A DNA stretch of 64,000 nucleotides from Methanobacteriota archaeon (GCA_038104845.1 JAYOBJ010000003.1:15598-79597), one strand, 5' to 3'; positions 6,065 to 60,598 are shown, counted from the first letter of the stretch. Program-made: numbers and translations. The notes: generated by a model not told the origin, from the letters alone.

Positions 6065-6204
6065 GTACGCTTCCACCGTGTCCACCCCCTGCGCATGCTG
6101 TGGCCCCCATCCTGTTGATTTCAACCCACCGATGCGAGGCGTTGGACGGTGAGTCCGACACATACTTCCTTGAACTCCGCCCCTCTTTGCCGACCGTTGG
6201 TCCC

Positions 6205-6678: not shown

Positions 6679-6813
6679 TCACGGTTGCATCGCTGTCCTC
6701 CCAAACGGTGGACGAACGGTGTGAAAGCGATATGGGAGAGCGCCTGCGGCCCCTGAAGTCAGGGCCGTCAGGGCTGCCTCGGGTCAAGGCGGGTGCGACC
6801 ATCCAAGACAGTG

Positions 6814-6822
6814 ATATAAAAA
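6814..6822 (+). promoter_or_regulatory. TATA-like box (ATATAAAAA) about 27 nt upstream of ATG 6845
   Basis: This is the only AT-rich block in the 6679-6844 intergenic region. The spacing fits an archaeal promoter producing a leaderless or near-leaderless mRNA. Confidence 0.3.
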
Positions 6823-6844
6823 CGGGAAATTTTTCGGTCAACGC

Positions 6845-19532: not shown

Positions 19533-19668
19533 ATCAACCCCTCAAGCCGCGGTGTCAAGCCGAGTGTTTCAGTCTTGTGACCCGTCATCACCACTCGCCA
19601 CGATTCTCCCCTACGCGGTTTGAAAACCGACGCTGCCTGACGCAGGTTTCGTTCATGAAAGGACCGCG

Positions 19669-19678
19669 TTCAAATATG
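19669..19678 (+). promoter_or_regulatory. TATA-like box (TTCAAATATG) about 25 nt upstream of ATG 19699
   Basis: AT-rich hexamer AAATAT at 19672-19677. No Shine-Dalgarno lies between it and the ATG. This is consistent with a leaderless transcript for the giant gene. Confidence 0.3.
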
Positions 19679-19698
19679 TTGAATCCCGCCTGTTTCAC

Positions 19699-40113: not shown

Positions 40114-40728
40114 ATGGCACAACGTGCAGCGACCGATTTGTTCAGCGATTGGGCGGCATCAGGCCGGGACGAGGGCATGGAAAAAGGCCACGCGGCCAGC
40201 GTCGAAGCGATGTTGGAAGCGGTGCTTCCCAAGCTTAACTCGGAATTCACGGCCATCGATGTTGGGTGCGGGAACGGTTGGGTCGTGCGGCGACTCAACG
40301 CCCTTGATGCATGCAAGCATGCCTCGGGGGTCGACGGGGCCGAGACGATGATCGACAAAGCCCACACGCTCGACCCCGAAGGCGATTATACACTGGCGAT
40401 GCTCCCCGAATGGCGCCCTGAAGCACCCGTTGACCTGGTGCACACGATGGAAGTCCTGTACTACCTTGAGGATCCCATGGGCTTCCTCGAAACGCTTCGC
40501 GAAGCGTGGCTGAACGACGGCGGTTGGGCGGTGATCGGTGTGGACCACTACGAAGAAAACGAAGCGTGTCACGATTGGTCAAGTTCGCTCAACGTTCACA
40601 TGGCCATGCACAGCATGGATGCCTGGGTCGAAGGCATGAACAAAGCGGGTTTCCGCCACGTCAAGGCGTTCCAAACCGGTGCAAAGGACGGTTGGGCAGG
40701 CACGCTCGTCCTCATGGGTCAGAAGTGA
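40114..40728 (+). CDS. class I SAM-dependent methyltransferase
   Basis: Motif I 'AIDVGCGNGWVV', and post-I/II elements 'VDLVHTMEVLYYLEDP'. Confidence 0.75.
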   Translation: MAQRAATDLFSDWAASGRDEGMEKGHAASVEAMLEAVLPKLNSEFTAIDVGCGNGWVVRRLNALDACKHASGVDGAETMIDKAHTLDPEGDYTLAMLPEWRPEAPVDLVHTMEVLYYLEDPMGFLETLREAWLNDGGWAVIGVDHYEENEACHDWSSSLNVHMAMHSMDAWVEGMNKAGFRHVKAFQTGAKDGWAGTLVLMGQK

Positions 40729-43700
40729 ACGGACCCACACCCAGCGGCTCGCCCTCCGGCCCGCAGCGACGGACATGCCCTCGATGGTAGGGGCACGATT
40801 CACACGCTCCGGCGGCCATGGGCAAGCGGCGCGGCGCTTCCGTGGCGGGGTTGAGGTGCACATGGGCGCGCCAAACCAAATGGGCATCGAGGTCGGCTTT
40901 GGCACGCTCAAACTGGGCGTCGTCAAGCGCCACCGTCCGGCCGTTGGCACCGACCAGCACCGCCGGTGGAAGGACGGTACGTCGCTGTGCCTCGGGCTTG
41001 TTTCGTTCCATGGCCTCCAACGCCAACGAGTAAAGCGATAGTTGCAAGCGGTGCTTCATCAGCAGGTCGGCTTCCGCCTGGTTCTGCGGGGACAGATCAA
41101 CGGTTTCTGGACCGCAGGCTTGCAACGGGTGACCGGCGGCGGGTGTTGAAGGGTTGAAGCCGCCCAAACAACCGGTTGTCTTCAGGTCGACCACGCGCAG
41201 GTAACCCGGCCCGGAACCGTCGGTCAATGCCAGCACCAGGTCGGCACGACCGCTGAAGTCCATCGTCACCGAGGTCACGTGCAGCGGGGAGGTGAACGCT
41301 GCTGTGTTGCGATGCTCAACCGGCAACCCGTGGCGATGGAAAAACGGCAATTCTGTGCGAACGGCTTCGACCCTGAGCCCGTCCATGGTTTCCCCGTTGA
41401 GCATGCGACCGAGTCGCCCGCGTTGGACCAAGGATGACAGGTGGGTCAGCCGGGCGCGCCATGTTGCTTCGTCGGACCCTTCTGCCTGTTTCGTTCCGAA
41501 GCCAAATTCGTGCATGACTTCCCCAAGCGCCTCATCGTCGGTCAGGCGGTCCTCGCCAGCGTGCAACCAGTCTCGGGACAAGGGCGAAGACGTGGCGTGG
41601 ATGGAACACGGGTTTCTCAAGCCGATTTCGAGCAAGCGGTGCATCATGAGACCAAACGTGGTCGCCTCGGGCCAGCCTCGCTGGTGGGCGGGGGGGCGGG
41701 GTCGTCCAGGCAACCACAGCGGTTCCGTTGGCCAACCTTTGACGTGTTCAAGCCAATAGCGACGTGGGCATGTTGACGTGGTGTCCAAGTGGTGAGCTGC
41801 ACCTTTCATCACCGCCACCGTTGGGGGGGGCGAACGTGGACCCGCTGGTTCGGACGGTGCAGTGGACGCAAGCCGGGCAGCGAGCTCGCGCAACTGGGCT
41901 TGGGGGGAGGAAGGGATGGGCTGGATGAAGCACGCTGGGTGGTGGTAAACACGGAGGCCTTGAACGCCGGTTGGACCAAGCGCAGCGGTGGAGAGCATGG
42001 AGGCAGGGTTGAACGCGACCGTCTCGCGCCTGGGCGAGAACGGCGGCAACTCATCCGCCTCCAATGCTTCTGTTTCAACGAGCAACGGATGAGCGGTGTT
42101 GGCCAGCCAGGCTGCGCGACGGAGCCCTTGCATCAACATGGAGCCCATCGTTCGAGGGTCCGGCTTGACGTTCACCGCCAGGCGCCCGTTGGTCTCGTCC
42201 CACTCACTGCGATCACCTGGCACCCCTGAAACCACAAGACGGTCCTTCACTCGTGTCAATGCGACGTAGAATTTCCGTCGCAACTCCGCTTTGTCTTGGG
42301 CTTTGTTCATCTCGCTGGCGAACGCCCAAAGCCCGTCTTGAGGCCGCTGGGCGCCCAACCACGGTTGGACTCGCCCGGCCACCGCCTGTGGGGTCACGAG
42401 CACGTTGTCCTGGATGGAGACCGTAGCATCGGCTTTGCCCGCCGTGAACAGCCCCGTCACCACCACCACGGGCGATTGAAGGCCTTTGGACCCGTGAATG
42501 GTCATGATTTGGATCGCTTCCGTTGCCGCCGGGCTGATGGCTTTCGGCCCCTGTTGACCCAATTGCCTCAATCCTGCCATGTTGGCTTGGACCGCACCCA
42601 CGTCGTGACCGTGTTGCGCACCGATGTCATGGAGCATGGCGTACCATGCTTCAGCGAACTGCCGATCGGCATCGCCGGGGTAAGCAGCCAGCAAATCCGA
42701 GTGGTCAAGCACGTCCTCAAACACCTCGTAGAGGGCACCGGCGTTGGCCCGCTGCCAGAGGTGGGTCATGAGGGCCTGCGTGCCGGGCGTGGGAGCGTGT
42801 GCGATCAGGTGCGACCAAGCATCTTCACCGTCACCCAACCCCGAAAGGCACGCATGGACTTCGTCCTCCGACATCCCCATCACCGGTGACCGAGCGAGTT
42901 GGAAGGCAGCGAGCCTGGACGTGGGGTGGGCCATCAACGTGAGCAGGGCTTGCAACGGTTGGACCACCGGTTGGGTCATCAACAAACCCAATCGGTCTGC
43001 CATGACGGGTAAACCGCGTTCACGCAATCGACGAACGAGATCGGGAAGATGGCGCCTGGAATTGACGAGGATCATCACGTCTGAGGGACGTACCTCGGAG
43101 CCAACTTCGGTCACGTGGGTCCACGAGACTCGGTCGGCGTCCCACACGCGTGTGGCACCACCGCCGATCAGGGATGCCAAGCGTTGGGCCACCAACTCAT
43201 GCTCCAAGTGCACCGCAGCGGCGTGAGGATCCGAAAACGTGTCAAGCGGTTCATCAAGGGATTCGGGGACGGTGTCCAATGTCCCCTGAACGGGGAGCAG
43301 CCATTCGAACACGCCACCTTCATCGGTCATTCGCGCTGGCCTCAAGCGTTGTGGCTCGGCGTGCCAATCCCCCGGTAAGTCGTGATGGTGGGGGTCGAAC
43401 ACCTCGTCAAACATGTCGTTCATGGTCTCCATCACATCGGCACGGGTTCGATGGTTGGAGGCCAGGTCGATGTGGCCTTCCCGTCGGCGTTGAAGGCGTT
43501 CACCGTCAAGGATGGCCCCTTCATCACCGTCCTCTTGGTTCAAGGGGACGAAACTGTGCGGAGCCGAGGCCCGTGTTTCATGTGCATTGCTGAAGGAACC
43601 GCCTTCACCGCCCGCACCCACCGGCCGAGGGTCCCGGCCGTGGCCCTCCTGTCGCAAATGGTCCAGCCTTGCATCATCGGCCTCGTCGATGTTGCAGCGC

Positions 43701-45643
43701 CGAATCATCGCCACTGCACGGCGCATGACCGAAACCTCGGCTTGGCGGAATCGGTAGATGCTCTGTTTCATGTCACCGACGATGCAGACCGTGGGGTCCC
43801 ACGCCCCGCGAGGACGCTGAGGGTCGTCGGCACGTTGATGGCGCCGCCCCCAAAGCCTGGCCAGCAGGCGAAAGTGTGCAGGGTTGGTGTCTTGGTATTC
43901 GTCGATGATGAACGCACGGAACTGCCGTCGGATGTCGCCCAGCACCGCCACGCGTTGGTGCAGGTCGGCCTGCAACTCGGGACGATCGTTGAGCAGTGTT
44001 AGGGCGCGCGTGATGTGATGATCGCTCCACGGTTCATCGCCCAAGCCGTCCAATGCATCGATGACCTCAGGAGGATAGCGATGACGGCACACATCGGGGC
44101 ACCGCGCGAGCAACACGTCCGCTGCAAACCGTTGCAAATCATCGAAATCGTGGAGCCCATCCAGTGATTTTCGTCGTGCGAGGATTTGGTGGGTCGCTCG
44201 ATGAACTTCAATCAAGTCGCTGAGGACCTGGGCCTGCAATTCACCGTCCACGAAGGTCCCCGCTGAGGGCGGTTCGTTGGGCAAGGGGTGGGTTAACGGC
44301 GCCAATCGCAACGGTGAATCGAGCGGCATCCCGTCAAATCCATCGCCCGGCTCGATGAGGAAGGCCGCCTTGGCCAAGAGGTTCACCAACGATCCAAACG
44401 GTGCGTGAAGACGCCGAACGAGGCGATCCTGAAGGACACCCGCTTGATCGTACAGTGCCGCACGCCCATCCTTGCCAATCCCGGCCGTGCTCGCCTTGGA
44501 TTTCGTCAGCAATCCAGCGGGCCAGCCATCCGACTGAGGCAGTGCGCTCCGTGGGAAGAACGTCGGAGGTTTGGCGGCCAAACCGGAGGTTGAAGCGAGG
44601 GCCATGTTGAGTTTCCAAGCCCACGAAAGGCCTGCACCGGTTGATTCGGGGAGGTCGCCGTGGGCCATCCGAACCAAGTGGTTGAACCGGGTCAAGTGCG
44701 TGTCACCCTCCGCTGGAGCCACGCAGCGCTCGTGATGCTGGAGAAACAGATCCACCCAGTCCCGCAGATCAGCGTGAAGTGCACTGAGGTGCCCTTGAAG
44801 GTCGTGGCGAACCGGTTCTGCGATGAGATCGAGCAACACCGCCACCGGAACCGGTCCGCGTCCGTTCCAATCAAGACCGAGGTCTTCGGACCGTTGAATC
44901 ATGGCACGGTGCGATTGCTCAACGAACAGCGACCGGTTCATCAATCCGTTCAGCACCACCTCGGCGGGCCCTTGACCGCCCATCATCGCAACAAGTCGAT
45001 CCCTGGCGCCGATGAAGGCCTCGTGGTGATGGAGCACACCCGCTTCGTGGGCGTCTTCAACCGAACGAATGCGCCACACTGTGTGAAGGGCATCGTTGAG
45101 CATCACGGGTGTTTGCGCTTCGGCTACGAACGTGTAGGATGGGTACAACGTGACCCGGTCGATGTGGGGTTGAATCAACCGGTTCAGGAAGGCATCGATG
45201 GTCGAGATCGGTGCCTCATCGAGCGAGGACAACAGCATCTCCACGTCGGCGTCCGAGCGAAGCCGTGGGTCAAACACACCTTCTGCATCGTCGGCAGCAA
45301 CGGCGGTGGCTCGCGATTGACCAAGACGCTGCCGAATGCGCGCCTTGAGTTCGGCTGCTGCCTTTTTGGTGAACGTGATGGCCACCACTTCGGAGGGAAG
45401 CAACCCGGGCCACGCCTCCAAGTCGGTTCGTTCACGTGCTGGAGCTCGCAACGCCCCGTGACCGGAAAGCGGTGTGCGAGGGCCTTGAGGCGTGACGTGC
45501 GTGGCGCGTTGGTCGTGCGCGATCAAGTGCTGAACGTAACGTTCGGCCATGACCGTGGTCTTGCCGGTGCCTGCACCGGCGTCGAGCGCAATGTGGCGAT
45601 CGAGGTCCAGCCCCAACCGTTGGCTGTTGTTGAAGTTGATCAT
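40712..45643 (-). CDS. addA: AddA-like UvrD-family helicase fused to a PD-(D/E)XK nuclease (1643 aa)
   Basis: Walker A 'DAGAGTGKTTV', motif II 'IIDEYQDTNPAHF', 'MTIHGSKGLQSPVV', 'FYVALTRVKDRLVVSG'. C-terminal nuclease 'GRADLVLAL...LRVVDLKT' and 'QLSLYSLAL'. Cys residues at 'STCPRRYW' and 'CESCPYHRGHVRRC'. The start overlaps the addB stop by 4 nt. Confidence 0.85.
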   Translation of the reverse strand: MINFNNSQRLGLDLDRHIALDAGAGTGKTTVMAERYVQHLIAHDQRATHVTPQGPRTPLSGHGALRAPARERTDLEAWPGLLPSEVVAITFTKKAAAELKARIRQRLGQSRATAVAADDAEGVFDPRLRSDADVEMLLSSLDEAPISTIDAFLNRLIQPHIDRVTLYPSYTFVAEAQTPVMLNDALHTVWRIRSVEDAHEAGVLHHHEAFIGARDRLVAMMGGQGPAEVVLNGLMNRSLFVEQSHRAMIQRSEDLGLDWNGRGPVPVAVLLDLIAEPVRHDLQGHLSALHADLRDWVDLFLQHHERCVAPAEGDTHLTRFNHLVRMAHGDLPESTGAGLSWAWKLNMALASTSGLAAKPPTFFPRSALPQSDGWPAGLLTKSKASTAGIGKDGRAALYDQAGVLQDRLVRRLHAPFGSLVNLLAKAAFLIEPGDGFDGMPLDSPLRLAPLTHPLPNEPPSAGTFVDGELQAQVLSDLIEVHRATHQILARRKSLDGLHDFDDLQRFAADVLLARCPDVCRHRYPPEVIDALDGLGDEPWSDHHITRALTLLNDRPELQADLHQRVAVLGDIRRQFRAFIIDEYQDTNPAHFRLLARLWGRRHQRADDPQRPRGAWDPTVCIVGDMKQSIYRFRQAEVSVMRRAVAMIRRCNIDEADDARLDHLRQEGHGRDPRPVGAGGEGGSFSNAHETRASAPHSFVPLNQEDGDEGAILDGERLQRRREGHIDLASNHRTRADVMETMNDMFDEVFDPHHHDLPGDWHAEPQRLRPARMTDEGGVFEWLLPVQGTLDTVPESLDEPLDTFSDPHAAAVHLEHELVAQRLASLIGGGATRVWDADRVSWTHVTEVGSEVRPSDVMILVNSRRHLPDLVRRLRERGLPVMADRLGLLMTQPVVQPLQALLTLMAHPTSRLAAFQLARSPVMGMSEDEVHACLSGLGDGEDAWSHLIAHAPTPGTQALMTHLWQRANAGALYEVFEDVLDHSDLLAAYPGDADRQFAEAWYAMLHDIGAQHGHDVGAVQANMAGLRQLGQQGPKAISPAATEAIQIMTIHGSKGLQSPVVVVTGLFTAGKADATVSIQDNVLVTPQAVAGRVQPWLGAQRPQDGLWAFASEMNKAQDKAELRRKFYVALTRVKDRLVVSGVPGDRSEWDETNGRLAVNVKPDPRTMGSMLMQGLRRAAWLANTAHPLLVETEALEADELPPFSPRRETVAFNPASMLSTAALGPTGVQGLRVYHHPACFIQPIPSSPQAQLRELAARLASTAPSEPAGPRSPPPTVAVMKGAAHHLDTTSTCPRRYWLEHVKGWPTEPLWLPGRPRPPAHQRGWPEATTFGLMMHRLLEIGLRNPCSIHATSSPLSRDWLHAGEDRLTDDEALGEVMHEFGFGTKQAEGSDEATWRARLTHLSSLVQRGRLGRMLNGETMDGLRVEAVRTELPFFHRHGLPVEHRNTAAFTSPLHVTSVTMDFSGRADLVLALTDGSGPGYLRVVDLKTTGCLGGFNPSTPAAGHPLQACGPETVDLSPQNQAEADLLMKHRLQLSLYSLALEAMERNKPEAQRRTVLPPAVLVGANGRTVALDDAQFERAKADLDAHLVWRAHVHLNPATEAPRRLPMAAGACESCPYHRGHVRRCGPEGEPLGVGPFTSDP

Positions 45644-48600
45644 CCTTCATCACCTCCAAGGGACGCAACATCGCATCCGTCCCGCACCGCACAGTACGTG
45701 CAATGACGGCCCGGTGTGGGGTTGATGTGACCGGCACCGAAAGCATCGATGGCCCGTTGCGCCACGCGTAACCGCTCCTCCATCCAGCGACGAAAGGCGG
45801 TCTGGCCGGAATCAGCAGGGTTGGTCCTCGGGAAGTGATGGCGAAGATGTTGCGTGATGTTGCCAACCATGAGCCCGTCGGCGACGGGGTCCATGGCTTC
45901 ATCGAGTTCAACGTAGTGCACCGTGCGTTCACCGATTTCGGACGCACCAACGCCAACCACACGGTCGTTGGGATGCGATTGCTCCCAAGCACGGGCGTAG
46001 AGCGCCAGCTGCACGTCCTCAAACATGCAACGAGCGTGACGCAATCCCAAGCGGTCTGCTTTCGGACCGTTGACGGTTTTCAGGTCACGTACAACGACCA
46101 ACCGTTGAACGGGACGCTGCGACCCGTTGAGTGGGTAGGGCGCCGCATGTGAAGCGTCGCCCAACACACCCGCTTCGATCAGAACGGCGCGTTGCGCTTC
46201 GGTGAGGTGCACCTCATCGATTCGGTCGGCGAACCCTGACATGTGGAACCCCCGTTCCGTATCATCGCTTGACGGTGCGTCGATGAAAACCGGTGAACCA
46301 TCGAGGTTCGATGCGGGCCATTCGGCCACCAACGGGGCAGCGTGACGCAGCGCCCATGTGGCTTCGAGCATGGAGCCCACTTGACCCCCCATGGGTAGGG
46401 GGGCAGCGCCTTCGACGTGAGCGGCCCATGCGTCCGGTGAAGCGTTGAGCAAGGCACGCGTGCGGTGCACGGAGACAGCGTTGGAGCGCCCCAGCCAAGT
46501 GGCATGTTCTGCGAGATACGTCAACACCGCACCCCAAGCGTCCGTGACGGTTCCAAGCACACCGAGATGCAACGGCAAGGCCGGCGCTTCACCGACTTTG
46601 CTGACCCTCAAACCATGCGCCTCAAGCAGGGCCACCGACACGTCGTGCATAAGTTGGCCCCGCGTGCGGTTGTCGATGTCTTCAGAGGGGGCTTCACCGT
46701 CGCTCCGAACGCCCAGCCAACCCTCCGACCACGCCCGACGTGGGCAGCGCAGAACGGCTTCGATCCGGCTTGGCGACCAACGCGTTCGATGGAGGGATGT
46801 GGAGAGGTGCCCGAACCGATCGTTGAGATGATCGGGGCCGGAACCGTAGGGTGGAAGGGGGCGCGGGTCAGCAGCGATGCTGTGGGAGCGCCCCGGCCGA
46901 TGCCCCAAATGGGGCCACAGCGGGGCATCTGCACTCGGTGTCTTGAGGTGATTGAGTTCACCGACACCAAAGCGAAGCGCATCCACAGAGAGGAGATGTG
47001 TGCGCGCATCCCAAGGCAAGCATTCACCTTCCTCCAGCCGTTTCGCCATCGGTTGACGGCGGTAGCGGTCTTCCTGTACAGCGGCGACGTGCGTGCGAAC
47101 CACACCCATGGGATGGAGCAGAGTATGGTCGCCTTCATCCCTCATGGCAAGCGCCCGTTGGCCCGCACGCTGACGTCCCGACCTGGGAAGCAAGCCATCC
47201 TCGGATCCAGTGCCTTCGTGAGCAACGGTGGAAACTGGGCCCAATTGGGGCGTCATCCAGGCCCCATGGCCCCGCTCTCGAACCGACCACGCCCAACGAC
47301 GTTCGGCCCCTTCACCTTGATGACGGGAGGGGGGGATGAACGGGGGTGGCTGGCGCATGGCATCCCATGTGCGGGATCGACGAACGTCGGTGAGCCATTC
47401 GGCCAGAGGGGCGCTGGGACCGTTGTCCTCCACAGATGAGGTGTCCATCACCGCCACATACCGGCCGGCGTTGAGCAAGTGACGGAGGTGATGGCGCCCC
47501 TGGCGAACCAAGACGTCGTTGTGGAACATGCCCAACTCCAACTGAGCGGTGGCGTCCAGCCACGGAAGCGTCGGTCGTTTCATGGGCCACGATTGAACAT
47601 CAAGGCCTGCCAGAACGACCAAATCAGCGTTGCATCCGTGGGCCTCTTCGGGCGTCAGCACCGTGACATGAGGCGATTGCGGTTCAGTTGACGGGATACG
47701 GAGGGCCTCACCGACCATGTGAAGCACGTCGATCATCCCTTGGCCTTGGAGCAGTTCGGTGCCTTCCTGCTTCACCACGCGATCCAACGCCTCGAGCACA
47801 TCCTGCAGGTCGCCCCAGCCTCGGTTGTGACGTCCGACGGTCCGAGCCATGCGTTCCATGTCAAGTCGGCCGACGGATTCACTCAGCCATTCAAGACCGT
47901 CGGCCGGTGCCTTTGGCGTTGGCAACACCTGTCCAGAGCTGCACCCAATCCGTTCGCGCCCAACATGGTGACGGTCCTCCGGCATCAACAACGGTGCCCA
48001 CGTCGCCACAACGCATGCCAGCCACCACTGCGTTTCCTCCAAACGTTGCTTGCGCTCGTCAGGACGGCGCTCAAGCAACGAGGGGCGTGCTTGACTCAAT
48101 GCTCCCATCCAACGAGCGATGGCGCCGGGCCCACCCAAGACGTGGAAATGCTGACCAATGTCGGCCAAAACCTCCAGATGCGGCCTGGGCCGCCAGCTGG
48201 GTTGGCTGGGATGCTCGAGCGCAGGGAACATGTCGGTCGACCAGGGCAGGGCGCTTGAGGTGACCAGGGTGCGCAATCCTTCGAGCGACCAAGCGTTCAT
48301 GCCCTGTCCGATGGAAGCAGCGTGAACGACGGCGGCGAAAACGGGTTGTTCACGCATCGACCGGGTCTGCGAGGGCGCAACGACCCCCCATTGTTTCAAC
48401 CATTGATGCCATGCCGCACGGCGTTGGTGGGCTTGACCGTCCACCACCAAAACACAACCGCCCTCGTGCGTCAAGAAATCACCGACGAGGTGGGCCGTTG
48501 CGGGGAGGGCGTCGTCACCGTGGTCCAAGGCGATGCGCGTCAACACCCTCCCGCGGTCCTCGCCTGCAGGCGTGGACCAAGCGGTTCCGTCGGAGGCCCA

Positions 48601-49434
48601 CACGGGGTGAGGCGGAAGCCAGGCCGGCAGCGTTTCCTCCGTGCACGGTGGCTCGTCGAGCACGTACGCGCCGTGATGACCCAATCGGAACGAACCGGGG
48701 TGAACCAGTTGGTGAACGGGGCAATGGACGGACAGGTGCGTGAGCAGATCCTGCTCGATCTCGTTGAAATCGGGCGCCGTGTCCAGCAACACGATGCCGT
48801 TGAGCCCAGCGAAGTGGAAGGGGGGGTGCTCAGCACGCTTCAGGGCGTTGAGCACATGGTGTTGCAACAACATCGGCAGCGTTCCACCTGCTTCCCGCTC
48901 ATGGGCCAGCATCAAATCGTGCAGCATGTCCACCCCGGGATTGGACGACCAAGCGAACGGTGAACGCAAACCGCTGACCTCGGCATAGAGGCTCAAGAGG
49001 CGTTTGGTTTTCTGAACCGTCCACGAACCCGCCCCCGGCGTGTGAAGCAAGGGAAAGCCATGCGCTTCGGCGGCCGTCGCACACCGACGATGGAGCGCCA
49101 TGAACGAGGTGACGTCGTCATTGAGCATGACAGGAAGGCGGAAATCAACGTGGAGCAAACGCCACAGCTGATTGAGGGTGGTGTGGGCCTGCGGGGCATG
49201 GGTGTAGCCTTGTTCGTGGAGATTGACCAGCGTTTGTTGACGGTGGTGCTCGTTGGGGTGCACCACGAGCAGGCCAGGGTCTTCATCCCTGAACGCTTCG
49301 AACAACCACGGCGGCAGGCCCTGACCGGCAGGGACATGTTCCGACGTGATCTGAGGCTGGACCATGACGTTCATTCCTGAGATGACCGGCGAGCGTTCTT
49401 GAAGATGCGCGAAGCAAACGGTGGAACATTTCAT
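45640..49434 (-). CDS. addB: AddB-like nuclease subunit (inactive-helicase scaffold plus Cas4/AddB-type PD-(D/E)XK nuclease, 1264 aa)
   Basis: I found no Walker A. C-terminal 'WSPSRIEAVLRCPRRAW', 'GFADRIDEV', 'VVVRDLKT', 'VQLALYARAW', 'HCTYCAVRDGC'. The start is ambiguous (49434 or ATG 49374, MNVMVQ). Confidence 0.75.
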   Translation of the reverse strand: MKCSTVCFAHLQERSPVISGMNVMVQPQITSEHVPAGQGLPPWLFEAFRDEDPGLLVVHPNEHHRQQTLVNLHEQGYTHAPQAHTTLNQLWRLLHVDFRLPVMLNDDVTSFMALHRRCATAAEAHGFPLLHTPGAGSWTVQKTKRLLSLYAEVSGLRSPFAWSSNPGVDMLHDLMLAHEREAGGTLPMLLQHHVLNALKRAEHPPFHFAGLNGIVLLDTAPDFNEIEQDLLTHLSVHCPVHQLVHPGSFRLGHHGAYVLDEPPCTEETLPAWLPPHPVWASDGTAWSTPAGEDRGRVLTRIALDHGDDALPATAHLVGDFLTHEGGCVLVVDGQAHQRRAAWHQWLKQWGVVAPSQTRSMREQPVFAAVVHAASIGQGMNAWSLEGLRTLVTSSALPWSTDMFPALEHPSQPSWRPRPHLEVLADIGQHFHVLGGPGAIARWMGALSQARPSLLERRPDERKQRLEETQWWLACVVATWAPLLMPEDRHHVGRERIGCSSGQVLPTPKAPADGLEWLSESVGRLDMERMARTVGRHNRGWGDLQDVLEALDRVVKQEGTELLQGQGMIDVLHMVGEALRIPSTEPQSPHVTVLTPEEAHGCNADLVVLAGLDVQSWPMKRPTLPWLDATAQLELGMFHNDVLVRQGRHHLRHLLNAGRYVAVMDTSSVEDNGPSAPLAEWLTDVRRSRTWDAMRQPPPFIPPSRHQGEGAERRWAWSVRERGHGAWMTPQLGPVSTVAHEGTGSEDGLLPRSGRQRAGQRALAMRDEGDHTLLHPMGVVRTHVAAVQEDRYRRQPMAKRLEEGECLPWDARTHLLSVDALRFGVGELNHLKTPSADAPLWPHLGHRPGRSHSIAADPRPLPPYGSGPDHLNDRFGHLSTSLHRTRWSPSRIEAVLRCPRRAWSEGWLGVRSDGEAPSEDIDNRTRGQLMHDVSVALLEAHGLRVSKVGEAPALPLHLGVLGTVTDAWGAVLTYLAEHATWLGRSNAVSVHRTRALLNASPDAWAAHVEGAAPLPMGGQVGSMLEATWALRHAAPLVAEWPASNLDGSPVFIDAPSSDDTERGFHMSGFADRIDEVHLTEAQRAVLIEAGVLGDASHAAPYPLNGSQRPVQRLVVVRDLKTVNGPKADRLGLRHARCMFEDVQLALYARAWEQSHPNDRVVGVGASEIGERTVHYVELDEAMDPVADGLMVGNITQHLRHHFPRTNPADSGQTAFRRWMEERLRVAQRAIDAFGAGHINPTPGRHCTYCAVRDGCDVASLGGDEG

Positions 49435-49727: not shown

Positions 49728-50969
49728 ATGAAGCGATTTTGTGAAGAATGTGGTGTGGAACAGCAGTGGGAATTGGACAGCGTGCGTGGCGAGATGTGCT
49801 GCGAAGGATGCGGGCTGACGCTCGATTACATCCCGAACGATGCGGATACGAACAGCTCCATTTCCGCCGGTGATGAACGCCAGAATGAACGGGTGAACGC
49901 CCTTGAGGGACGTGGCCCTGGAACCGTGATGAACGCCATGGGCGACCGGTTTGATGCCCAAGGAAACCGACTTTCGGCCGATGCGTTTCGCTTGTACCGA
50001 CGGTTGGGTCGCGTGAACCGCTCCACCCACCGTGAGAAAGACCCGATGTACCGTCAACTCGTTGCAACGTTGCGCGAACTCTTCGGCGAAAACCTCGCCC
50101 TCACGGTGGAGTTCCTGACGCGCGCCACCGCCCAGAAACTCACCCCCATGCAGGAGGCGATCCGCCGCACCCTGTCGCCCAGCGAACAGAAACTGCTGGC
50201 CTGCCCCAAAACCAGCATCACGCGCAAGCCCTCGGGCGTTAAGGGCGAGTCGGACCGTCAAAACCTCGTTTTGATGGCCATTGCCATCGCCGAGTTGGCC
50301 CACGAATGGTTCGGCGCCCTCCACATTGACCGAGCGGCCTTGCTCGCTGAACACGGCCTGACGCAGACCCAATTCAAGAACGCCAAGCGAACCATTTCGC
50401 AGCATTACAAAGCCCGCTGCCGTCAGAAATTCGCACCCATCCCACGACCCGACATGGATGCCGAGATGAAGGCGTACATCAAAAACGGCATCCGTCACGA
50501 CAAGGTGGACGTTCACACCGACCGGTTGTTCAACGAACTGGACAGCCGCCTGACCGATGCACAACACAATGCATTGAACAAGGTGTACGACGGCATGCTG
50601 ACCGCCATTGGCGAGCCCTCCACCGACGCATACACCGCCAACATGGATGAATCCATGCTCTGCTCGGTGGTGATGTTGGCAGCGTTGACGGCCCTGGATC
50701 TCGAGCATCAAAACCTGGCGGCCTTGGGCCGCGCGGTCGGCGACCGCTCCGGTGCCGGCATCAAGAGCCGCTTGGCGCAGCTCCGCTATGAGGTGGAGCG
50801 CGGCATCTTCCCACAGGGTGCTGCCTTGTTCGAGAAGCACCGTTCGCCGCACGGGCGGGAAGGCCAAGCCGACGAGACCCAGACGGATGCTTCAGACGAG
50901 GCCGAACGGACGGACCGTTCCAGCGACCGAAACGGTTCCTCGGACGAGACGAGCGGCTCGGGGCAGTGA
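49728..50969 (+). CDS. tfb: divergent transcription initiation factor TFB/TFIIB paralog (413 aa)
   Basis: N-terminal zinc ribbon 'CEECGVEQQWELDSVRGEMCCEGCGLTL'. Helical cyclin-like region ('NLVLMAIAIAELAHEWFGALHIDRAALLAEHGLTQTQFKNAKRTI'). Unusually long, with an acidic/Ser-rich tail. Confidence 0.7.
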   Translation: MKRFCEECGVEQQWELDSVRGEMCCEGCGLTLDYIPNDADTNSSISAGDERQNERVNALEGRGPGTVMNAMGDRFDAQGNRLSADAFRLYRRLGRVNRSTHREKDPMYRQLVATLRELFGENLALTVEFLTRATAQKLTPMQEAIRRTLSPSEQKLLACPKTSITRKPSGVKGESDRQNLVLMAIAIAELAHEWFGALHIDRAALLAEHGLTQTQFKNAKRTISQHYKARCRQKFAPIPRPDMDAEMKAYIKNGIRHDKVDVHTDRLFNELDSRLTDAQHNALNKVYDGMLTAIGEPSTDAYTANMDESMLCSVVMLAALTALDLEHQNLAALGRAVGDRSGAGIKSRLAQLRYEVERGIFPQGAALFEKHRSPHGREGQADETQTDASDEAERTDRSSDRNGSSDETSGSGQ

Positions 50970-51008
50970 GTCCGCGAGGTTGAAAGGCGCCCCTTCCGTG
51001 GGAGTGTC

Positions 51009-51908
51009 ATGAAGCGCACGCTCACCGTCCTTCTCTCCGTTGCCGTGATGGTCTCGATGATCAACACGGCAGCGGCCTTGCCCGCAGAACCGACCGAGGC
51101 CGGCACCATGTTTGGTGGTCAATGGACCTCGGCGAACAACACATCAGCGCAGGTCACCGAACTTGGCCAACTGAAGGCCGTAGTGGAGGTGTTCACGGCC
51201 ACATGGTGCGAGAATTGCGTTGATGTTGAGCACGCCTTGGAGGACGTTCAAGCAGCAGGATTGCTCCAACAGTACCACATCCATCGGTCCATCGGGGAAA
51301 CCCAAGACCCGTTCGGCACGGATGAACTCGACCAGCGTTGGAAGGACAAATATGGGTACGACTCACCCCCGACCGTGGTGCTCAACGGCTCCATGAAGAA
51401 AATCGGCAGTGTAGCAGACGACGGCACGTTGGTGAATGAATTCACCAACCTTGCCAACACCGACCTCGAACTCGGGAACGGCACGACCGCGTTCTCCTGG
51501 ACACCAACCGACACGCAAACCGGCACCGTCGCTTGGAACCTTGACATCGAAGAGCAGGTGTTGGAAGGCCACGACCTTCACGTCACGGTGTGGTGGGTGG
51601 AAGCCCATGCCGATTTCGAGGAAGGGACCAACGGACTGGGCACCTACCCGCACATCGTACACGCCATCGTTGACCTCGGCGATGCACTGAACGGAAGCGC
51701 CTCGTTGACCCTGCCCGAAGCGCACGATGGGAACGACATGGAGATCCACCTCATCTACGAACTGTCCCCCGCTGAAATGATGGTCAACCCCGCCCCCCCG
51801 GTCGTGGTCGAGGACGAAGCCATGCCGTGGATGAGTGCATGGTCGAGTCTGGCCGCTGTGGTGGCGGTCGCCCTCACGCGTCGTCCACTTGATCCTCGGC
51901 AGGGATGA
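51009..51908 (+). CDS. secreted, C-terminally anchored thioredoxin-fold CxxC protein
   Basis: Signal peptide 'LLSVAVMVSMINTAAALPA'. 'VEVFTATWCENCVDVEHAL' (WCxxC). Beta-rich middle section. C-terminal TM 'WSSLAAVVAVAL' followed by TRR. Confidence 0.6.
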   Translation: MKRTLTVLLSVAVMVSMINTAAALPAEPTEAGTMFGGQWTSANNTSAQVTELGQLKAVVEVFTATWCENCVDVEHALEDVQAAGLLQQYHIHRSIGETQDPFGTDELDQRWKDKYGYDSPPTVVLNGSMKKIGSVADDGTLVNEFTNLANTDLELGNGTTAFSWTPTDTQTGTVAWNLDIEEQVLEGHDLHVTVWWVEAHADFEEGTNGLGTYPHIVHAIVDLGDALNGSASLTLPEAHDGNDMEIHLIYELSPAEMMVNPAPPVVVEDEAMPWMSAWSSLAAVVAVALTRRPLDPRQG

Positions 51909-54333
51909 ACGGCAGCGCATCCTCCCCTCGCTGCTTGTGCCGTGCCGACGGTGCATCCGTCAAATCCTCGTGGTACGGCCACCGAAGGTCTGCCATCTCA
52001 TCGGGTACAGCGAACGGTTCAACGTAATTCCACCAGCGAGGCGGTGCCCCTCGAACACCCTGATCCTGTTGGATCTTCCCCAGAAGTTCACTGAGTTTCA
52101 TCCGAGCGTTGGGAGAGGGGTGGTCGCGACGGACCAGACGAACACTGCGTTCGTGTTCCGTGTCCAACACGTAGCCGGCCAAGCGGGCCATGCGCCGCAT
52201 GAATTTGCGTTCTTGCTGATTGCGCACCGTGACCCTCAGTTCGGTTCGCTCCAGCGAAAGCGCGCCACCGTTGTTCATCGGCAACGAGACCCAAGCGCCA
52301 AGCGGCTGGCGAAGAAGAACATGCCAGATCCGAGCAAACGCCTCACACCATCGGCGTTCACCGTCCCGAACATCCCCCACTTCGTGAACGTCCTCGCGTT
52401 GCCGGTACGGCATCCCGCGAAACCACCGGTGCTCCAAACGGAACATGCGATGGCGGTCCCTGAGCCCGTGACGCACACGGCGATGACGTTGCTCATCGTA
52501 TGGAGGAACCGATGAACGCCAGGCGTTGACCACGTCGTCGTAGGGCAGGTCCGCTCCACATTCCATGGCGGCGCTGAACCGTTCCCGCCACCGACCGTGA
52601 CGTGACGACCCACGTCGGCGATCACGACGGCGGTGTTCCGCCTCGATGTAGCCATGCATCTCCATCTCATGGAAACGATGACGTTGGTCGTCCGGGAAGG
52701 CCCGGCCACCGAACCAAGGACGCCGTTCACCCATCAGTGGCCGCAGCAAACCACGCTCAGCCAATCGATCCAAGCTGGCAACGGCCTCTTGATTGAGCAG
52801 CCCACGCCATCGGTCGTCGGGTTCCTCGGGGAAACCCAAGGGTGTGGCGTTCATCATCATCGATGCGAGGCTGTCGATGTTGATCGCGGCGGTGGCATCG
52901 TTGTAGAGCGAAAGAAACACCGAGCCAAGGGTGTCCCCGATGGGCACCGTGTTCGTGCGCTGACCGCTGTGGATGCACAAGTCCCTCCCTGCGTGGGGTT
53001 TGAACGACGTCCGATGTTGGATGCAATACGGCGCACCGTGCTGGCCCTCCCCCACGCTCACTTCATACACATGCCCAAGTTGACCGATGATGAGCACCCG
53101 GTCGTGTTGGACAGCCACACGAGCACCCAAGATGCCGTTCAAAATGTCGTGGCAAAATTCCAGCGAACGCACCACCTCAGGGGCGTCGATGTTGCGTTTG
53201 AAGTACGGTCGAGACCAGTTGTGTTGCAAACCGAGGAGCAGCTTCCCCGGCCTGGAATCCAATGGGCTCATGGTCAGCGAAATCAAGAGTGCCCACAGGT
53301 CGGGTCGGTTTGGCACCTGCACCAATCGAGTTCGGTTGATGGGCGAACGCACACGAAATTTGATCCGTGACCCACCCATTTGCAAAGGGTGGTCGAGGTT
53401 GTCGACATCGTCCATGGTGGAGACGTGGTCGCGGTAATGTTGCATCCATGGCTCATCGTGATGATCAAACAACCCCGTCGGCCGGTGAGCGAACGCCTCG
53501 TCCACCATGCGTTGGTGCGGAATGTTCCGCACGGTATCGGTGGTGCAGGTTTTGAAATCGTAGGCCCATGCCAGTGCACTCATCGCTTCCTTTGGTGCAC
53601 CCTCACGGGTGCGGTTCACGCGAATCTTCAGTGACAGCCACGACAGCATGGTGCCAATGGGGCGGTGATGGGGGTGAATCAAACGGTGGTAGCGTCCACG
53701 AAAGAAAAAATGGGGGACGTCGGCGTTTTCGTGTTCATCGGGAGCGATGTGCAGCGCTCCCAAACCCGTGTACAATTTGGTCAGATCCCAACCTTCTCGA
53801 ACGGTGGGGTTGCCCAGCACCTCCAGCACCATCGGGTCGGTCACGCGAGCGCCCAAAGGAACGTCGTTCAGGTACCACACGCCGTTCATGCGACGCATCC
53901 ACACGCCGTCGCGAAGCTCAACACCGACGTTCAACCAGTGTTGTTGGTCCGGGCTCAAATCCCGACCCGCCAAGGCATCGCTCATCAAGGCAGCAAACGC
54001 TTCGTCCGAACAAGGCAGCGTGACGACGGGATCGCCACCGTCCGCCAAGCGCGCCCAATTGACGTGGAAGGAATCCTTCATGCGTTGAGCGAGGTGTTTC
54101 CATCGTCGCTGGCTGGACAACGATGAACCGCCAAACAGCGAGATGGCTTCTTCATGTTCCTCATCGCTCAACGGGACATGCCAACCCTCTCGTGGGCGGT
54201 GATTCAGCATGGATCGGCACAGTTCACACACCATCACGCCTTCTTCCGAAGCACGGTTGTGAACGCATGGCAAAGGGTCAACCTTGTTGTCACTCATGAC
54301 CTCATGGTTGTTTGAGGCGATATAAATCTCCAT
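51874..54333 (-). CDS. large hypothetical protein (819 aa from ATG), Arg/His/Trp-rich, no family recognised
   Basis: Uninterrupted ORF with no credible competing ORF on the other strand. The ATG (54331-54333) overlaps the ltaE stop TGA (54333-54335). N-terminal Cys/His cluster 'CVHN...CELCRSMLNH'. Confidence 0.65.
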   Translation of the reverse strand: MEIYIASNNHEVMSDNKVDPLPCVHNRASEEGVMVCELCRSMLNHRPREGWHVPLSDEEHEEAISLFGGSSLSSQRRWKHLAQRMKDSFHVNWARLADGGDPVVTLPCSDEAFAALMSDALAGRDLSPDQQHWLNVGVELRDGVWMRRMNGVWYLNDVPLGARVTDPMVLEVLGNPTVREGWDLTKLYTGLGALHIAPDEHENADVPHFFFRGRYHRLIHPHHRPIGTMLSWLSLKIRVNRTREGAPKEAMSALAWAYDFKTCTTDTVRNIPHQRMVDEAFAHRPTGLFDHHDEPWMQHYRDHVSTMDDVDNLDHPLQMGGSRIKFRVRSPINRTRLVQVPNRPDLWALLISLTMSPLDSRPGKLLLGLQHNWSRPYFKRNIDAPEVVRSLEFCHDILNGILGARVAVQHDRVLIIGQLGHVYEVSVGEGQHGAPYCIQHRTSFKPHAGRDLCIHSGQRTNTVPIGDTLGSVFLSLYNDATAAINIDSLASMMMNATPLGFPEEPDDRWRGLLNQEAVASLDRLAERGLLRPLMGERRPWFGGRAFPDDQRHRFHEMEMHGYIEAEHRRRDRRRGSSRHGRWRERFSAAMECGADLPYDDVVNAWRSSVPPYDEQRHRRVRHGLRDRHRMFRLEHRWFRGMPYRQREDVHEVGDVRDGERRWCEAFARIWHVLLRQPLGAWVSLPMNNGGALSLERTELRVTVRNQQERKFMRRMARLAGYVLDTEHERSVRLVRRDHPSPNARMKLSELLGKIQQDQGVRGAPPRWWNYVEPFAVPDEMADLRWPYHEDLTDAPSARHKQRGEDALPFIPAEDQVDDA

Positions 54334-55376
54334 CAAAATGCGGACCGCATGACCTCGAGAAACCGGTCCACGTCCTCGTCCGTGATGTGCAGGTGAACGA
54401 CGATTCGGACCTTTGTTGGCGCGATGTCGAACACGTCCACACCGTGGCTCGCGAGGGTGGCGGCAACCTCAGACGCTGGTCGTTCGCACGAAACGTACAC
54501 CATGTTCGTTTGAACCGTGTCGAGGTCAACCGAAAAACCGGGCATGCTGTCGACAGCCTGAGCCAATCGGCGTGCCCGTGCATGGTCCTCTGCCAAGCGC
54601 CCCACGTGATGGTCGAGGGCGTGGTGGGCGGCGGCCGCAAGAAGGCCGGCTTGGCGCCAGCCACCTCCAAACATCTTGCGCCAGCGATGGGCTTGTGCAA
54701 TGAAGGCCTTTGAACCCACCAACACGGAGCCCACCGGCGCACCCAACCCCTTGGAGAAGCAGATGGACACCGAGTCGTAAGCCGCACACATGTCCGCAAC
54801 CGAAACACCGGTGGCTTCACTGGCGTTGAAGATGCGGGCACCGTCGATGTGCGTCGCACATCCGTGCGCTCTTGCCACGGCGGCGATGCCGTCCAACGTC
54901 GCCTGATCGTAGCACGCGCCACCGCCAAGGTTGGAGGTGTTCTCAACGCACACCAGTGTACTGTTTGGGTAGTGGCTGCCTGAGCCATCCGCCTTTCGAA
55001 TTGCCGCATGAACTTGTTCGGGGGTCATCAACCCCTTGTGCCCGTCGACCAACGCAATGGACGCACCGCACAGGGCAGCGTACCCGCCGCCCTCGTACCG
55101 GTAGATGTGGGCGGTTCGGTCGCACACGATCTCATCGCCCGGCACGGTGTGGGTTCGAAGGGCAACAGCGTTGGCCATCGTGCCCGAGGCAAGGAACAGG
55201 CCGGCCTCTTTGCCGAACAGCGCCGCAACTCGGGATTCGAGGGACATCACCGTGGGATCGTCGCCGAGCACATCGTCACCAACGTCCGCTTCCATCATGG
55301 CCCGCCGCATCGCAGCGGTGGGTTGGGTGACGGTGTCGGAGCGAAAATCAACGCGGTCCGAGGGGTGTTCGCGCAT
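54333..55376 (-). CDS. ltaE: low-specificity L-threonine aldolase
   Basis: 'DFRSDTVTQPT', 'VGDDVLGDDPT', 'GTMANAVAL', 'VSICFSKGLGAPVGS' (PLP lysine context). Confidence 0.9.
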   Translation of the reverse strand: MREHPSDRVDFRSDTVTQPTAAMRRAMMEADVGDDVLGDDPTVMSLESRVAALFGKEAGLFLASGTMANAVALRTHTVPGDEIVCDRTAHIYRYEGGGYAALCGASIALVDGHKGLMTPEQVHAAIRKADGSGSHYPNSTLVCVENTSNLGGGACYDQATLDGIAAVARAHGCATHIDGARIFNASEATGVSVADMCAAYDSVSICFSKGLGAPVGSVLVGSKAFIAQAHRWRKMFGGGWRQAGLLAAAAHHALDHHVGRLAEDHARARRLAQAVDSMPGFSVDLDTVQTNMVYVSCERPASEVAATLASHGVDVFDIAPTKVRIVVHLHITDEDVDRFLEVMRSAF

Positions 55377-55412
55377 GGCACCCCTTGCGTCCTCCCCTTC
55401 ATCAAGGCGGTG

Positions 55413-55829
55413 TCAAAGAAGTTTGAGTTCGCCCGTCAGGCGGTCAAGGGTTTCGCTCTCAAAAGGACCGAGGGCCAACACGGTCTTCGAACCGGCCGGA
55501 ATCTGGGTGTGACCGGCATCTCGTACCAAATGAAAGGGGACGTTGAGCGTTTTGGCTTCGGTCATCAAACGGTCGAATGCTGCCTCATCGGGCACCTTCA
55601 CACAGATTTTCTTCTGACCGGTGGCCAACCATGCCTCCACATGACCGGCGTGGGTGGGTCCTGCACCGAGGAACGCACCCACGGATGCATGGCCCACCTG
55701 CGCTGCCATCTTTCCCTTGCCCATTTTGAGCGACTGGTTAACCACGCACACCAGCTTCACCGGTCCACGAATGCGGTCCACACCACCGCTTGGGGCCGTG
55801 ATTCGGTGCAACCATGAACGAAGACCCAT
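55413..55829 (-). CDS. pth2: peptidyl-tRNA hydrolase, archaeal type (Pth2), copy B
   Basis: 'KMGKGKMAAQVGHASVGAF', 'GQKKICVKV', 'LVRDAGHTQIPAGSKTVLALGP'. The ORF is open to 55955, but ATG 55829 lies 4 nt after the stop of copy A. Confidence 0.85.
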   Translation of the reverse strand: MGLRSWLHRITAPSGGVDRIRGPVKLVCVVNQSLKMGKGKMAAQVGHASVGAFLGAGPTHAGHVEAWLATGQKKICVKVPDEAAFDRLMTEAKTLNVPFHLVRDAGHTQIPAGSKTVLALGPFESETLDRLTGELKLL

Positions 55830-55833
55830 GCCA

Positions 55834-56217
55834 TCACCACGATGCGAGCGAACCCGTGATGGCGTCCAACGCACGCCGTGGCGCGGGGCCCAACCCGAGG
55901 ACCGTGACCGTACCCGGAGGCAGTTCGGTGCGTCCGGCGTCCTTAATGAGCGCATGCACCACTTGATGCGCTTCTGCCATGGCCAGCAATTCGTTCAGGT
56001 GCGCTTCGTCTTCGGCCGCCAGGCAGACCTTGCGGGCACCGCTTTCCAACCATCGGTCGTACAGGCGGCCATGTTGGCGGGCGCGGCGGGTGCAGGTCAC
56101 CGCTGCATGCGCGCACTGCACAGCCATTTTGCCTGCGGACATCACCACATCTCGGCGAACGATCAGCGCCATGCTGGGCGCATCATCCATCGATGGCATG
56201 GCGTTCAACGACCTCAA
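55834..56217 (-). CDS. pth2: peptidyl-tRNA hydrolase, archaeal type (Pth2), copy A
   Basis: 'MSAGKMAVQCAHAAV', 'GARKVCLAA', 'LIKDAGRTELPPGTVTVLGLGP'. The start may be the Met at 56172 (MALIVRR), which removes the overlap with the upstream gene. Confidence 0.85.
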   Translation of the reverse strand: MRSLNAMPSMDDAPSMALIVRRDVVMSAGKMAVQCAHAAVTCTRRARQHGRLYDRWLESGARKVCLAAEDEAHLNELLAMAEAHQVVHALIKDAGRTELPPGTVTVLGLGPAPRRALDAITGSLASW

Positions 56218-60552: not shown

Positions 60553-60598
60553 GGTTTACCCACGGGGTCGCCCTTCATGAGCACCACGCTTGTTCAAG

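Follow-up and report, generated by a model that had tools for sequence, protein, structure and literature searches.

A stretch of 64,000 nucleotides (nt) from a Methanobacteriota archaeon (GCA_038104845.1 JAYOBJ010000003.1:15598-79597; "the window" below means this whole stretch) carries on its minus strand an open reading frame (ORF), 51874..54333, that we refer to as X. X is a genuine gene under strong purifying selection that is expressed in situ, and its product is a large conserved protein that can be placed in no known family. We put at roughly 30 to 40% the probability that this protein is a translation-associated factor, and not one of amino-acid metabolism; the lead is a C-terminal tail, found in many orthologues, that resembles the docking peptide of the archaeal ribosomal stalk. 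Marine Group II archaea, the order Poseidoniales in which the family is found, rank with the most abundant archaea of the plankton and have no member known in pure culture, so that their biology is read almost entirely from genomes in which conserved hypothetical proteins are common. X is one such gene: in every relative examined it occupies a fixed chromosomal place, and it is expressed and constrained, yet it matches nothing known.

The ORF encodes 819 amino acids from an ATG, or 820 from a TTG one codon further upstream. Residues are numbered here from the ATG (Met1); the most likely coding sequence runs on the minus strand from Met13 (54297..51877, 807 amino acids, with the stop codon at 51874-51876), as judged by the conserved start Met, the pattern of substitution and a translation check. 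An initial annotation of the window had described X as a large conserved-looking ORF without a recognisable domain, very rich in Arg, His and Trp, and had quoted several peptide strings, all of which were found in the translation. Constraint on the gene is strong, with a ratio of nonsynonymous to synonymous substitution rates (dN/dS, omega) of 0.08 over codons 13-819 at a dS of ~1 when the window was compared with its 85%-identical orthologue (locus L010); this value and the lack of any family match bear out that description. Among family sequences of 39-97% identity more than 100 columns are invariant. Most of the gene is also represented, at 90-99% identity, in contigs assembled from four metatranscriptome runs on salt marsh and seawater. 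The unusual composition was likewise confirmed, Arg/His/Trp making up 11.8/5.5/2.9% of the protein vs 6.9/3.5/1.9% in 18 other window proteins. This enrichment is family-wide (means 10.3/5.1/3.05%), and the isoelectric point is 7.5 for the window protein and 6.4-8.9 across the family, while 9 of the 11 other window proteins tested fall below 6.3, the remaining two being basic PTH2 proteins.

The protein is not the orphan it was first taken for. A protein search returned 42 full-length homologues (39-97% identity); when 1.84 billion representatives were searched exhaustively with a profile, 141 of them matched at 50% clustering, and 58 loci turned up in a set comprising one genome for each GTDB species. 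Fifty-seven of these loci are labelled Poseidoniales, Poseidoniaceae, Poseidonia, or unresolved Euryarchaeota/Methanobacteriota/Thermoplasmatota metagenome-assembled genomes (MAGs). The lone exception, L053 (NZEQ01000040.1), is labelled 'Verrucomicrobiales bacterium' and has the complete archaeal PTH2-ltaE-X-299aa-TFB-like gene block described below; most likely, this is a contig of Poseidoniales that was mis-binned. More remote matches are hypothetical proteins of 410-870 amino acids, the named ones all bearing Thalassarchaeaceae, Poseidoniales or unresolved marine archaeal labels. As far as labels show, the family is limited to Poseidoniales. Its database entries read 'hypothetical protein' only, and a literature search on Poseidoniales with leaderless transcripts or ubiquitin brought up nothing relevant.

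Searches against known families and folds were negative throughout. Pfam gave no significant match for the window protein, for 31 aligned family members or for 20 remote homologues; NCBIfam, PADLOC and PHROGs gave none; and no PDB sequence was matched by phmmer or by profile, even at E<=10. In the structural check proposed in the initial annotation, AlphaFold2, run with the family alignment, produced confidently modelled domains (mean predicted local distance difference test score (pLDDT) 75, 559 of the 819 residues scoring 70 or more), and Foldseek found nothing significant for the full-length model, the best E being 0.76 against the PDB and 0.12 against BFVD. The clear match to a characterised family that the annotation had envisaged as one outcome did not appear. 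The family thus stands outside known kinds by sequence or significant structural similarity, and new biology is not thereby demonstrated.

The alignments and models divide the protein into seven regions, all read from the minus strand. At the N-terminus lies a zinc-ribbon-like module (residues 21-62, 54148..54273, pLDDT ~88) with Cys23, Cys36, Cys39 and possibly His60 as ligands; these four positions are nearly invariant, and in the window the spacing is C23-x12-C36-x2-C39. The Cys/His cluster that had been noticed here appears in Thalassarchaeaceae relatives as a canonical zinc ribbon, CxxC-x(8-12)-WCxxC, at the extreme N-terminus, which suggests that this module is a putative zinc binder. 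It runs into an N-terminal alpha/beta domain (residues 57-195, 53749..54165, pLDDT 88-95) with invariant W78, W93, G137 and W182, for which no significant structural match was found; within it, the modelled helix-helix-hairpin order of residues 103-155 could be a winged helix. A helical region (221-302) and a beta-plus-helix region (317-377), together 53203..53673, follow in the alignments and the full-length model, with the motifs PW..RW, FRVRT..G..RLV.VP and WALLISL.LSPL.S.AGKLLLGLQHNW.

The most conserved part is a core at residues 378-532 (52738..53202), marked by LEFCH, LGHxYEV, GQHGAPY, ICIHSG and PLGDTMGSVLLSMxND and containing the lowest omega of the protein (0.035, residues 378-505). 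Modelled alone, the core reached a pLDDT of 83.8 and a predicted template modelling (pTM) score of 0.80, with the order a1-b1-b2-b3-b4-(short Cys strand)-a2-a3-a4. Across Poseidoniaceae, Thalassarchaeaceae and a tandem paralogue found in the latter, only Gly417, Cys453, Asp467 and Asp479 of the core are invariant. Cys453 (codon 52975..52977), the sole Cys invariant in all aligned members including the paralogue, is by its conservation a candidate active-site or ligand residue. A metal cluster formed by the His/Cys-rich motifs (LEFCH, LGH, GQHGAPY, ICIH) was considered and dropped, as conservation of most of the His residues does not extend to Thalassarchaeaceae relatives.

Beyond the core, residues 533-654 (52372..52737) form an Arg/His-rich linker of variable length that aligns poorly, has an omega of 0.11, falls below a pLDDT of 50 at 545-560, 571-577 and 619-653, and is much shorter in Thalassarchaeaceae homologues. 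The Arg-rich stretches picked out in the initial annotation are real, and both strings lie inside this segment, a basic and probably disordered linker that would be suited to nucleic-acid binding. The C-terminal alpha/beta domain (residues 655-795, 51949..52371, pLDDT 79-92, omega 0.063) carries the invariant blocks GDxRDGERRWCE.FAR.W, RRDHPxPNAR, RGAPPRWWNY and W..H.DLTD and is absent from short paralogues. The protein closes with a flexible tail, residues 796-819 (51877..51948, pLDDT below 50, omega 0.39), reading ...EDALPFIPAEDQVDDA.

In many orthologues this tail hints at a role in translation. GLxxLFG at the extreme C-terminus is a hallmark of archaeal ribosomal stalk proteins. Among 56 species-level loci surveyed, 15 X proteins end in G[LI]G[DE][LI]FG and 10 more in x-LFG (25/56, ~45%); F-x-GLGDLFG tails occur at L014-L017, L021, L032, L035, L037, L042-L044, L050, L053, L054 and L065. 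A further 17 tails consist of a hydrophobic cluster plus an acidic residue (WVFLE, FVFDE, GLGEFVE), and 14, including those of the window clade, end otherwise. When metagenomes were scanned for ORFs ending GLG[AD]LFG-stop, the matches listed were almost entirely P0 and P1 proteins, often encoded side by side as P0-P1 pairs, with no X homologue among them. A marine subgroup of these matches ends ...EEEE-GG-F-[GAD]-G-L-G-D-L-F-G and was assigned by exact look-up to 50S ribosomal protein P1/L10 of Thalassarchaeaceae and of Euryarchaeota/Thermoplasmatota MAGs; most other archaea among the matches listed end GLGALFG, and a few GC-rich contigs GLGELFG. Among 122 P1 proteins related to one of this subgroup, some of them labelled Poseidoniales, Thalassarchaeum betae or marine group II/III, 84 end FEGLGSLFG and 27 end FGGLGDLFG. 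Many X orthologues thus appear to carry their own order's stalk tail, including the upstream Phe, on an otherwise unrelated 800-amino-acid protein, where "own order's" refers to P1/P0 proteins of which the nameable ones are mostly from Thalassarchaeaceae, not Poseidoniaceae. To our knowledge no non-ribosomal protein with a stalk tail has been described, although no literature search was aimed at one.

In Pyrococcus this ending binds translation factors. The C-terminal peptide of P. horikoshii aP1, EALAGLSALFG, binds aEF2, and conserved residues at the aP1 C-terminus recognise aEF2, aEF1A and aIF5B (PMC5887453); the stalk C-terminal domain also binds aEF1A (PMC4267659). If X works in a comparable way, its basic composition, its Arg-rich linker and its zinc ribbon would allow binding to RNA or to the ribosome, and its flexible C-terminal tail would dock into a hydrophobic groove of a partner, as the stalk tail does. 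The partners would most likely be translational GTPases, since ~45% of the orthologous species share the P-stalk ending that binds these three factors. The core with Cys453, Asp467 and Asp479, possibly similar to UBC, E2 or UEV proteins, could provide a second protein-binding surface or carry out thiol chemistry. Two PTH2 proteins and GatE encoded nearby are translation-related and fit this proposal weakly.

Several observations weigh against a role in translation. The window protein itself has no stalk-like tail and ends ...LPFIPAEDQVDDA, so that the docking step is least certain for this copy; the tail is absent in 31 of the 56 species, and more divergent homologues lack any tail. No experiment or homology links the family to translation. 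Synteny here is order-wide, and the neighbours may therefore reflect genome order and not function; moreover, the TFB-like, AddAB-like and MCM genes nearby fit a DNA-related function equally well. Finally, the similarity of the core to the UBC fold is non-significant (Foldseek E>=0.075, TM score ~0.3; hhalign <=0.4%), and the core has no HPN motif.

A more specific form of the proposal is doubtful. Here, X would be a Poseidoniales-specific translation factor or regulator whose copy of the stalk tail captures or delivers aEF1A, aEF2 and aIF5B away from the ribosomal stalk or in competition with it, coupled to a UBC/RWD-like Cys core. By analogy, such an arrangement would parallel eukaryotic RWD/E2-type proteins acting on the P-stalk and eEF1A. 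The stalk-tail mimicry in the orthologues is an unexpected and directly testable lead; if it is true, X would be a lineage-specific player in archaeal translation control and the first protein outside the ribosome known to us to carry the P-stalk docking peptide.

The gene neighbourhood bears on what else the protein might do. X forms the end of a co-directional string of ~10.9 kb that starts at MCM, in agreement with the ~11 kb given initially. In every Poseidoniaceae-type locus the order is MCM - GatE - a gene of ~550 amino acids (with weak PQQ_2 and DUF4430 matches in some copies) - DUF6580 - PTH2 - PTH2 - ltaE - X - <299 aa - <TFB-like - AddB-like> AddA-like>. The ltaE and PTH2 genes were present in all 53 loci with sufficient upstream flank, the 299-amino-acid gene in 58/58 loci and the TFB-like gene next to it in 54/58. 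Identity among loci is 27-56% for X, 67-91% for ltaE and 52-90% for PTH2. The 3' ends of X and the convergent 299-amino-acid gene (51009..51908, plus strand) overlap by 35 nt in the window (51874..51908), and a 3' overlap of 17-47 nt between the called genes is seen in all homologous loci examined. A Thalassarchaeaceae contig has the order MMPL - ltaE - 573 aa - X (659 aa) - 332 aa - <TFB-like - AddB> AddA>. Here, the 573-amino-acid gene (L069:6244-7965) is a paralogue of X directly upstream of it (hhalign probability 99.4%, E 3e-21), which keeps the zinc ribbon and Cys core, has no C-terminal domain and ends in an acidic tail; the two proteins possibly form a heterodimer. Short homologues of 410-570 amino acids (e.g. 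P0161, P0143, P0165), from named Thalassarchaeaceae/Poseidoniales genomes, resemble this paralogue type. X is a single-copy gene, and when all ORFs of the window were searched with an HMM no paralogue of it came up.

This setting offers the alternative that X binds DNA as a chromosome factor in transcription, replication or repair, working with the TFB-like protein, the AddAB-like helicase-nuclease or MCM. In Poseidoniaceae as well as in Thalassarchaeaceae, the TFB-like zinc-ribbon gene lies within one gene of X and the AddB/AddA-like genes beside it; a DNA binder would also be in keeping with the N-terminal zinc ribbon, the helix-helix-hairpin of residues 103-155 and the basic composition. 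We nevertheless regard this alternative as unlikely: neither Foldseek nor Pfam returned a winged-helix or other DNA-binding fold, the neighbours in question are convergent or divergent and are not co-transcribed with X, order-wide synteny weakens guilt by association, and the stalk-like tail is left unexplained.

Several of the neighbours deserve description in their own right. The TFB-like protein (413 amino acids, 49728-50969, plus strand) has as its sole Pfam signal a weak TFIIB zinc ribbon (E 3.6e-4, below cut-off) and no cyclin-fold match in Pfam; its gene is fast-evolving (21-86% identity) and is a constant neighbour of X in both Poseidoniales families. The AddA-like protein (1643 amino acids, UvrD helicase plus PD-(D/E)XK, 40712-45643, minus strand) and the AddB-like protein (1264 amino acids, PD-(D/E)XK, 45640-49434, minus strand) constitute a bacterial-type helicase-nuclease pair in an archaeon, and the pair adjoins the locus in most of the homologous loci read. 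The 299-amino-acid protein (51009-51908, plus strand) has no Pfam match, hydrophobic N- and C-terminal stretches and a WCENC (CxxC) motif. The tandem PTH2 genes (55413-55955 and 55834-56217, minus strand) remain paired wherever the upstream flank of a related locus was read; the first, listed with 180 amino acids, is probably over-extended, as its homologues have 138 amino acids, which would place the start at ~55829.

An enzymatic role for the core, which would not exclude a function in translation, was also considered. Here, the core would be a true E2-like enzyme of UBC fold that forms a thioester on Cys453 and transfers a ubiquitin-like or SAMP-like modifier. When the core alone was compared with the PDB using Foldseek, 9 of the 12 top matches were UBC-fold proteins, namely Rad6, UEV1, Mms2 (twice), UBE2N, Atg10, PfUev1a, UBE2S and Leishmania UEV1, that is E2, UEV or Atg10 proteins; none was significant (E 0.075-0.6, TM score 0.26-0.36, root-mean-square deviation 5-12 Å). 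The E2 J2 and the inner-kinetochore subunit CENP-P, whose fold we take to be RWD-type, stood lower in the same list, and E2s were also listed, non-significantly, in the full-length search. The predicted topology, a1-b1-4-Cys loop-a2-a4, would fit the UBC fold and places Cys453 between b4 and a2. With UBE2D2 and a five-member E2 profile (the profile's identity verified against the PDB) as hhalign targets, at probabilities of 0.1-0.4%, two independent runs set Cys453 on the E2 catalytic Cys and a2 on a2, at a probability of only 0.2-0.4%.

We consider such an enzyme improbable. Every Foldseek and hhalign score was non-significant, a third hhalign run gave no such alignment, and frataxin-type alpha/beta sandwiches score like the UBC-fold proteins in the core search. 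The 31 family members have no match to UQ_con or prokaryotic E2 Pfam families at E<=1 and no HPN motif, the nearest conserved element being HGAPY, 21 residues before Cys453, and in the 29 window proteins scanned Pfam detected no E1-like, Ubl or JAB domain. A UBC-like core is consistent with the models and statistically unsupported; it is kept as a weak lead, as the isolated-domain fold search points the same way. Were the E2-like reading true, X would represent a new prokaryotic UBC-like family.

The initial annotation proposed that X is co-translated with threonine aldolase through a TGATG overlap; with this goes the reading that the two work together in amino-acid metabolism. The overlap is present in the sequence, as is the 819-amino-acid ORF: in ...GCATTTTGATGGAG..., the stop codon of ltaE (54335-54333) overlaps the ATG at 54333-54331, giving TGATG at 54335..54331. 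The upstream gene is a clear Beta_elim_lyase/threonine aldolase (Pfam E 3e-105), and ltaE lies directly upstream in all Poseidoniaceae-type loci with upstream flank. Examination of taxonomic distribution and of the coupling, as the annotation had suggested, gave a divided answer: the family is order-specific and adjacency to ltaE is kept, while the overlap is not conserved, being restricted to the clade of the window and L010; in the other orthologues the two genes are set apart by a spacer, in which in-frame stops are frequent.

The start at Met1 is probably wrong. Orthologues begin at a Met aligned with window Met13 (ATG 54297..54295), 8-10 residues ahead of the first conserved Cys, and a start matching Met13 is applicable in 56 related loci; the N-terminal extensions of longer database entries are unrelated. 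The 12 codons upstream of Met13 (54298..54333, minus strand), which include the TGATG ATG, are probably an untranslated promoter region. Their frame is open only in the window and the L010 clade, with in-frame stops in many orthologues, and the distance from the ltaE stop to the conserved ATG is 35 nt in the window and 32-40 nt in three loci measured directly. Between the window and L010, omega in the extension was 0.98 (11 codons, a small sample) vs 0.08 downstream, and all differences in these 11 extra codons, outside the TATA box, change the amino acid. The predicted N-terminus of the Met13 form is (M)SDNKVDPLPCVHNR; that of the Met1 form is MEIYIASNNHEVMSDNK, beginning MEIYIASNNHEV.

The extension contains a conserved promoter element. 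In 46 of 47 distinct orthologous upstream regions a box C-T-T-C-A-W-A-W-A occupies -30..-22 at a fixed 21-nt spacing to the conserved ATG, with T at -29/-28 and A at -26 in 46/47, A at -24 in 47/47, and also T at -18; in the window it reads TTTATAT at -29..-23 from the Met13 ATG (54320..54326, minus strand), six bases past the ltaE stop. Leaderless archaeal promoters are recognised by a TATA box centred ~26-27 nt upstream of a start codon that coincides with the transcription start, and the box of X has this spacing. A well-spaced Shine-Dalgarno sequence is missing at both candidate ATGs of X. An A/T-rich box ~26-32 nt before the ATG, again with no Shine-Dalgarno sequence, is found at ltaE (55377-55410), gatE (60553-60590), the 299-amino-acid gene (50975-51008), an ORF of 2753 amino acids (19665-19698; box TTCAAATA, 30 nt ahead of the ATG) and MMPL (6810-6844), while MCM (62728), the TFB-like gene (49728), the AddA-like gene (45643) and a gene for an EF-hand protein (34667) have GGAGGTGA 5-7 nt upstream. 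The genome thus seems to mix leaderless and Shine-Dalgarno-led genes, so that the 11-kb string probably comprises several transcription units.

The RNA data are compatible with this. Contig depth is ~0 over 54340-54506 in all four runs, which fits separate transcripts, in data that consist of assembled contigs and cannot resolve 5' ends. One contig (X26, 53923-54347) weighs on the other side: it extends 50 nt upstream of the proposed transcription start, and read-through from ltaE or an earlier start is possible. Taken together, comparison of the upstream sequences gives good support to translation from Met13 on a leaderless mRNA with its own TATA-like promoter. With its own promoter in the spacer and its start at Met13, X would not be translationally coupled to ltaE. 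The TGATG overlap is, we conclude, accidental and local, the result of a frame left open across the promoter, and the 11-kb string is not one translationally coupled unit. In addition, a paralogue of X separates ltaE from X in Thalassarchaeaceae, and X evolves far faster than ltaE at the identities given above. Co-translation with a shared metabolic role is therefore very improbable, and annotations that start at TGATG or further upstream, as several database entries do, are probably ~12 to 27 codons too long.

The faint resemblance to DUF4132/MolR-type proteins that the initial annotation pointed out did not survive comparison, and membership in that family is even harder to credit. Nothing beyond that remark favoured it. 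The window protein did not match PF13569 at E<=0.01, none of 31 members matched it at E<=1, and when the family profile was aligned by hhalign with E. coli YehI, the best probability was 0.17%, at YehI 475-510, with nothing placed on the DUF4132 region (954-1138); as a positive control, YehI itself matched PF13569 at E 2e-47 over residues 954-1138. Nor does X have a WGR, MoxR or vWA context like that of yehI. That X is a spurious long ORF in GC-rich DNA, an idea favoured by the chance ORFs of 200-390 amino acids on other frames and strands here and linked in the annotation to a lack of homologues and of expression, can safely be set aside in view of the homologues, the metatranscriptome coverage, the low omega, the invariant columns, the fixed synteny and the confident structure models.

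Other features of the window were recorded in passing. Two giant ORFs, of 2753 amino acids (19699-27960, plus strand) and 1214 amino acids (2645-6289, minus strand), have no Pfam match at E<=1e-4. A protein of 659 amino acids encoded in the window (32688-34667, minus strand) matches Pfam only by a C-terminal EF-hand pair and adjoins an Obg/DRG-type GTPase with a TGS domain (31386-32675, minus strand). Rfam (whole window) and tRNA searches found nothing. An origin of X in a defence system or mobile element is unlikely, the gene being single-copy, its synteny fixed and PADLOC and PHROGs without a match.

Compared with known systems, X shares least with the DUF4132/MolR proteins (E. coli YehI, YehH): both are large prokaryotic proteins of unassigned function and nothing else joins them, there being no HMM or profile similarity, and taxonomy and gene context differ. 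With the N-terminal zinc ribbons of TFIIB/TFB it has in common the CxxC-x(8-12)-WCxxC pattern of the Thalassarchaeaceae relatives, of which the window protein keeps three of four Cys; unlike those proteins, X has no Pfam zinc-ribbon match and no cyclin/TFIIB core after the ribbon, and Poseidoniaceae-type sequences have lost the first knuckle's second ligand. The core would share with the UBC superfamily (E2, UEV/Mms2, Atg10, RWD) its predicted N-terminal helix, four-stranded antiparallel meander, Cys loop and three or four helices, together with a local likeness of ICIHSG...LPLGDTMGSVLLSM.ND in X to G.ICLDIL..WSPA..I..VLLSI.SLL..PN in E2; it differs in having no significant score and in being embedded in an 800-amino-acid protein that also contains a zinc ribbon, a basic linker and an unrelated domain at the C-terminus. 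From aP1/P0, X differs in having no Ribosomal_60s domain, in its size (800 vs ~104 or 300-340 amino acids) and in the divergence of the tail in the window copy and many other orthologues. The likeness lies in the tail itself: 15 of the 56 X orthologues end F-x-G-L-G-[DE]-L-F-G after a flexible charged linker, just as the stalk proteins of Poseidoniales end ...GF[EG]GLG[SD]LFG.

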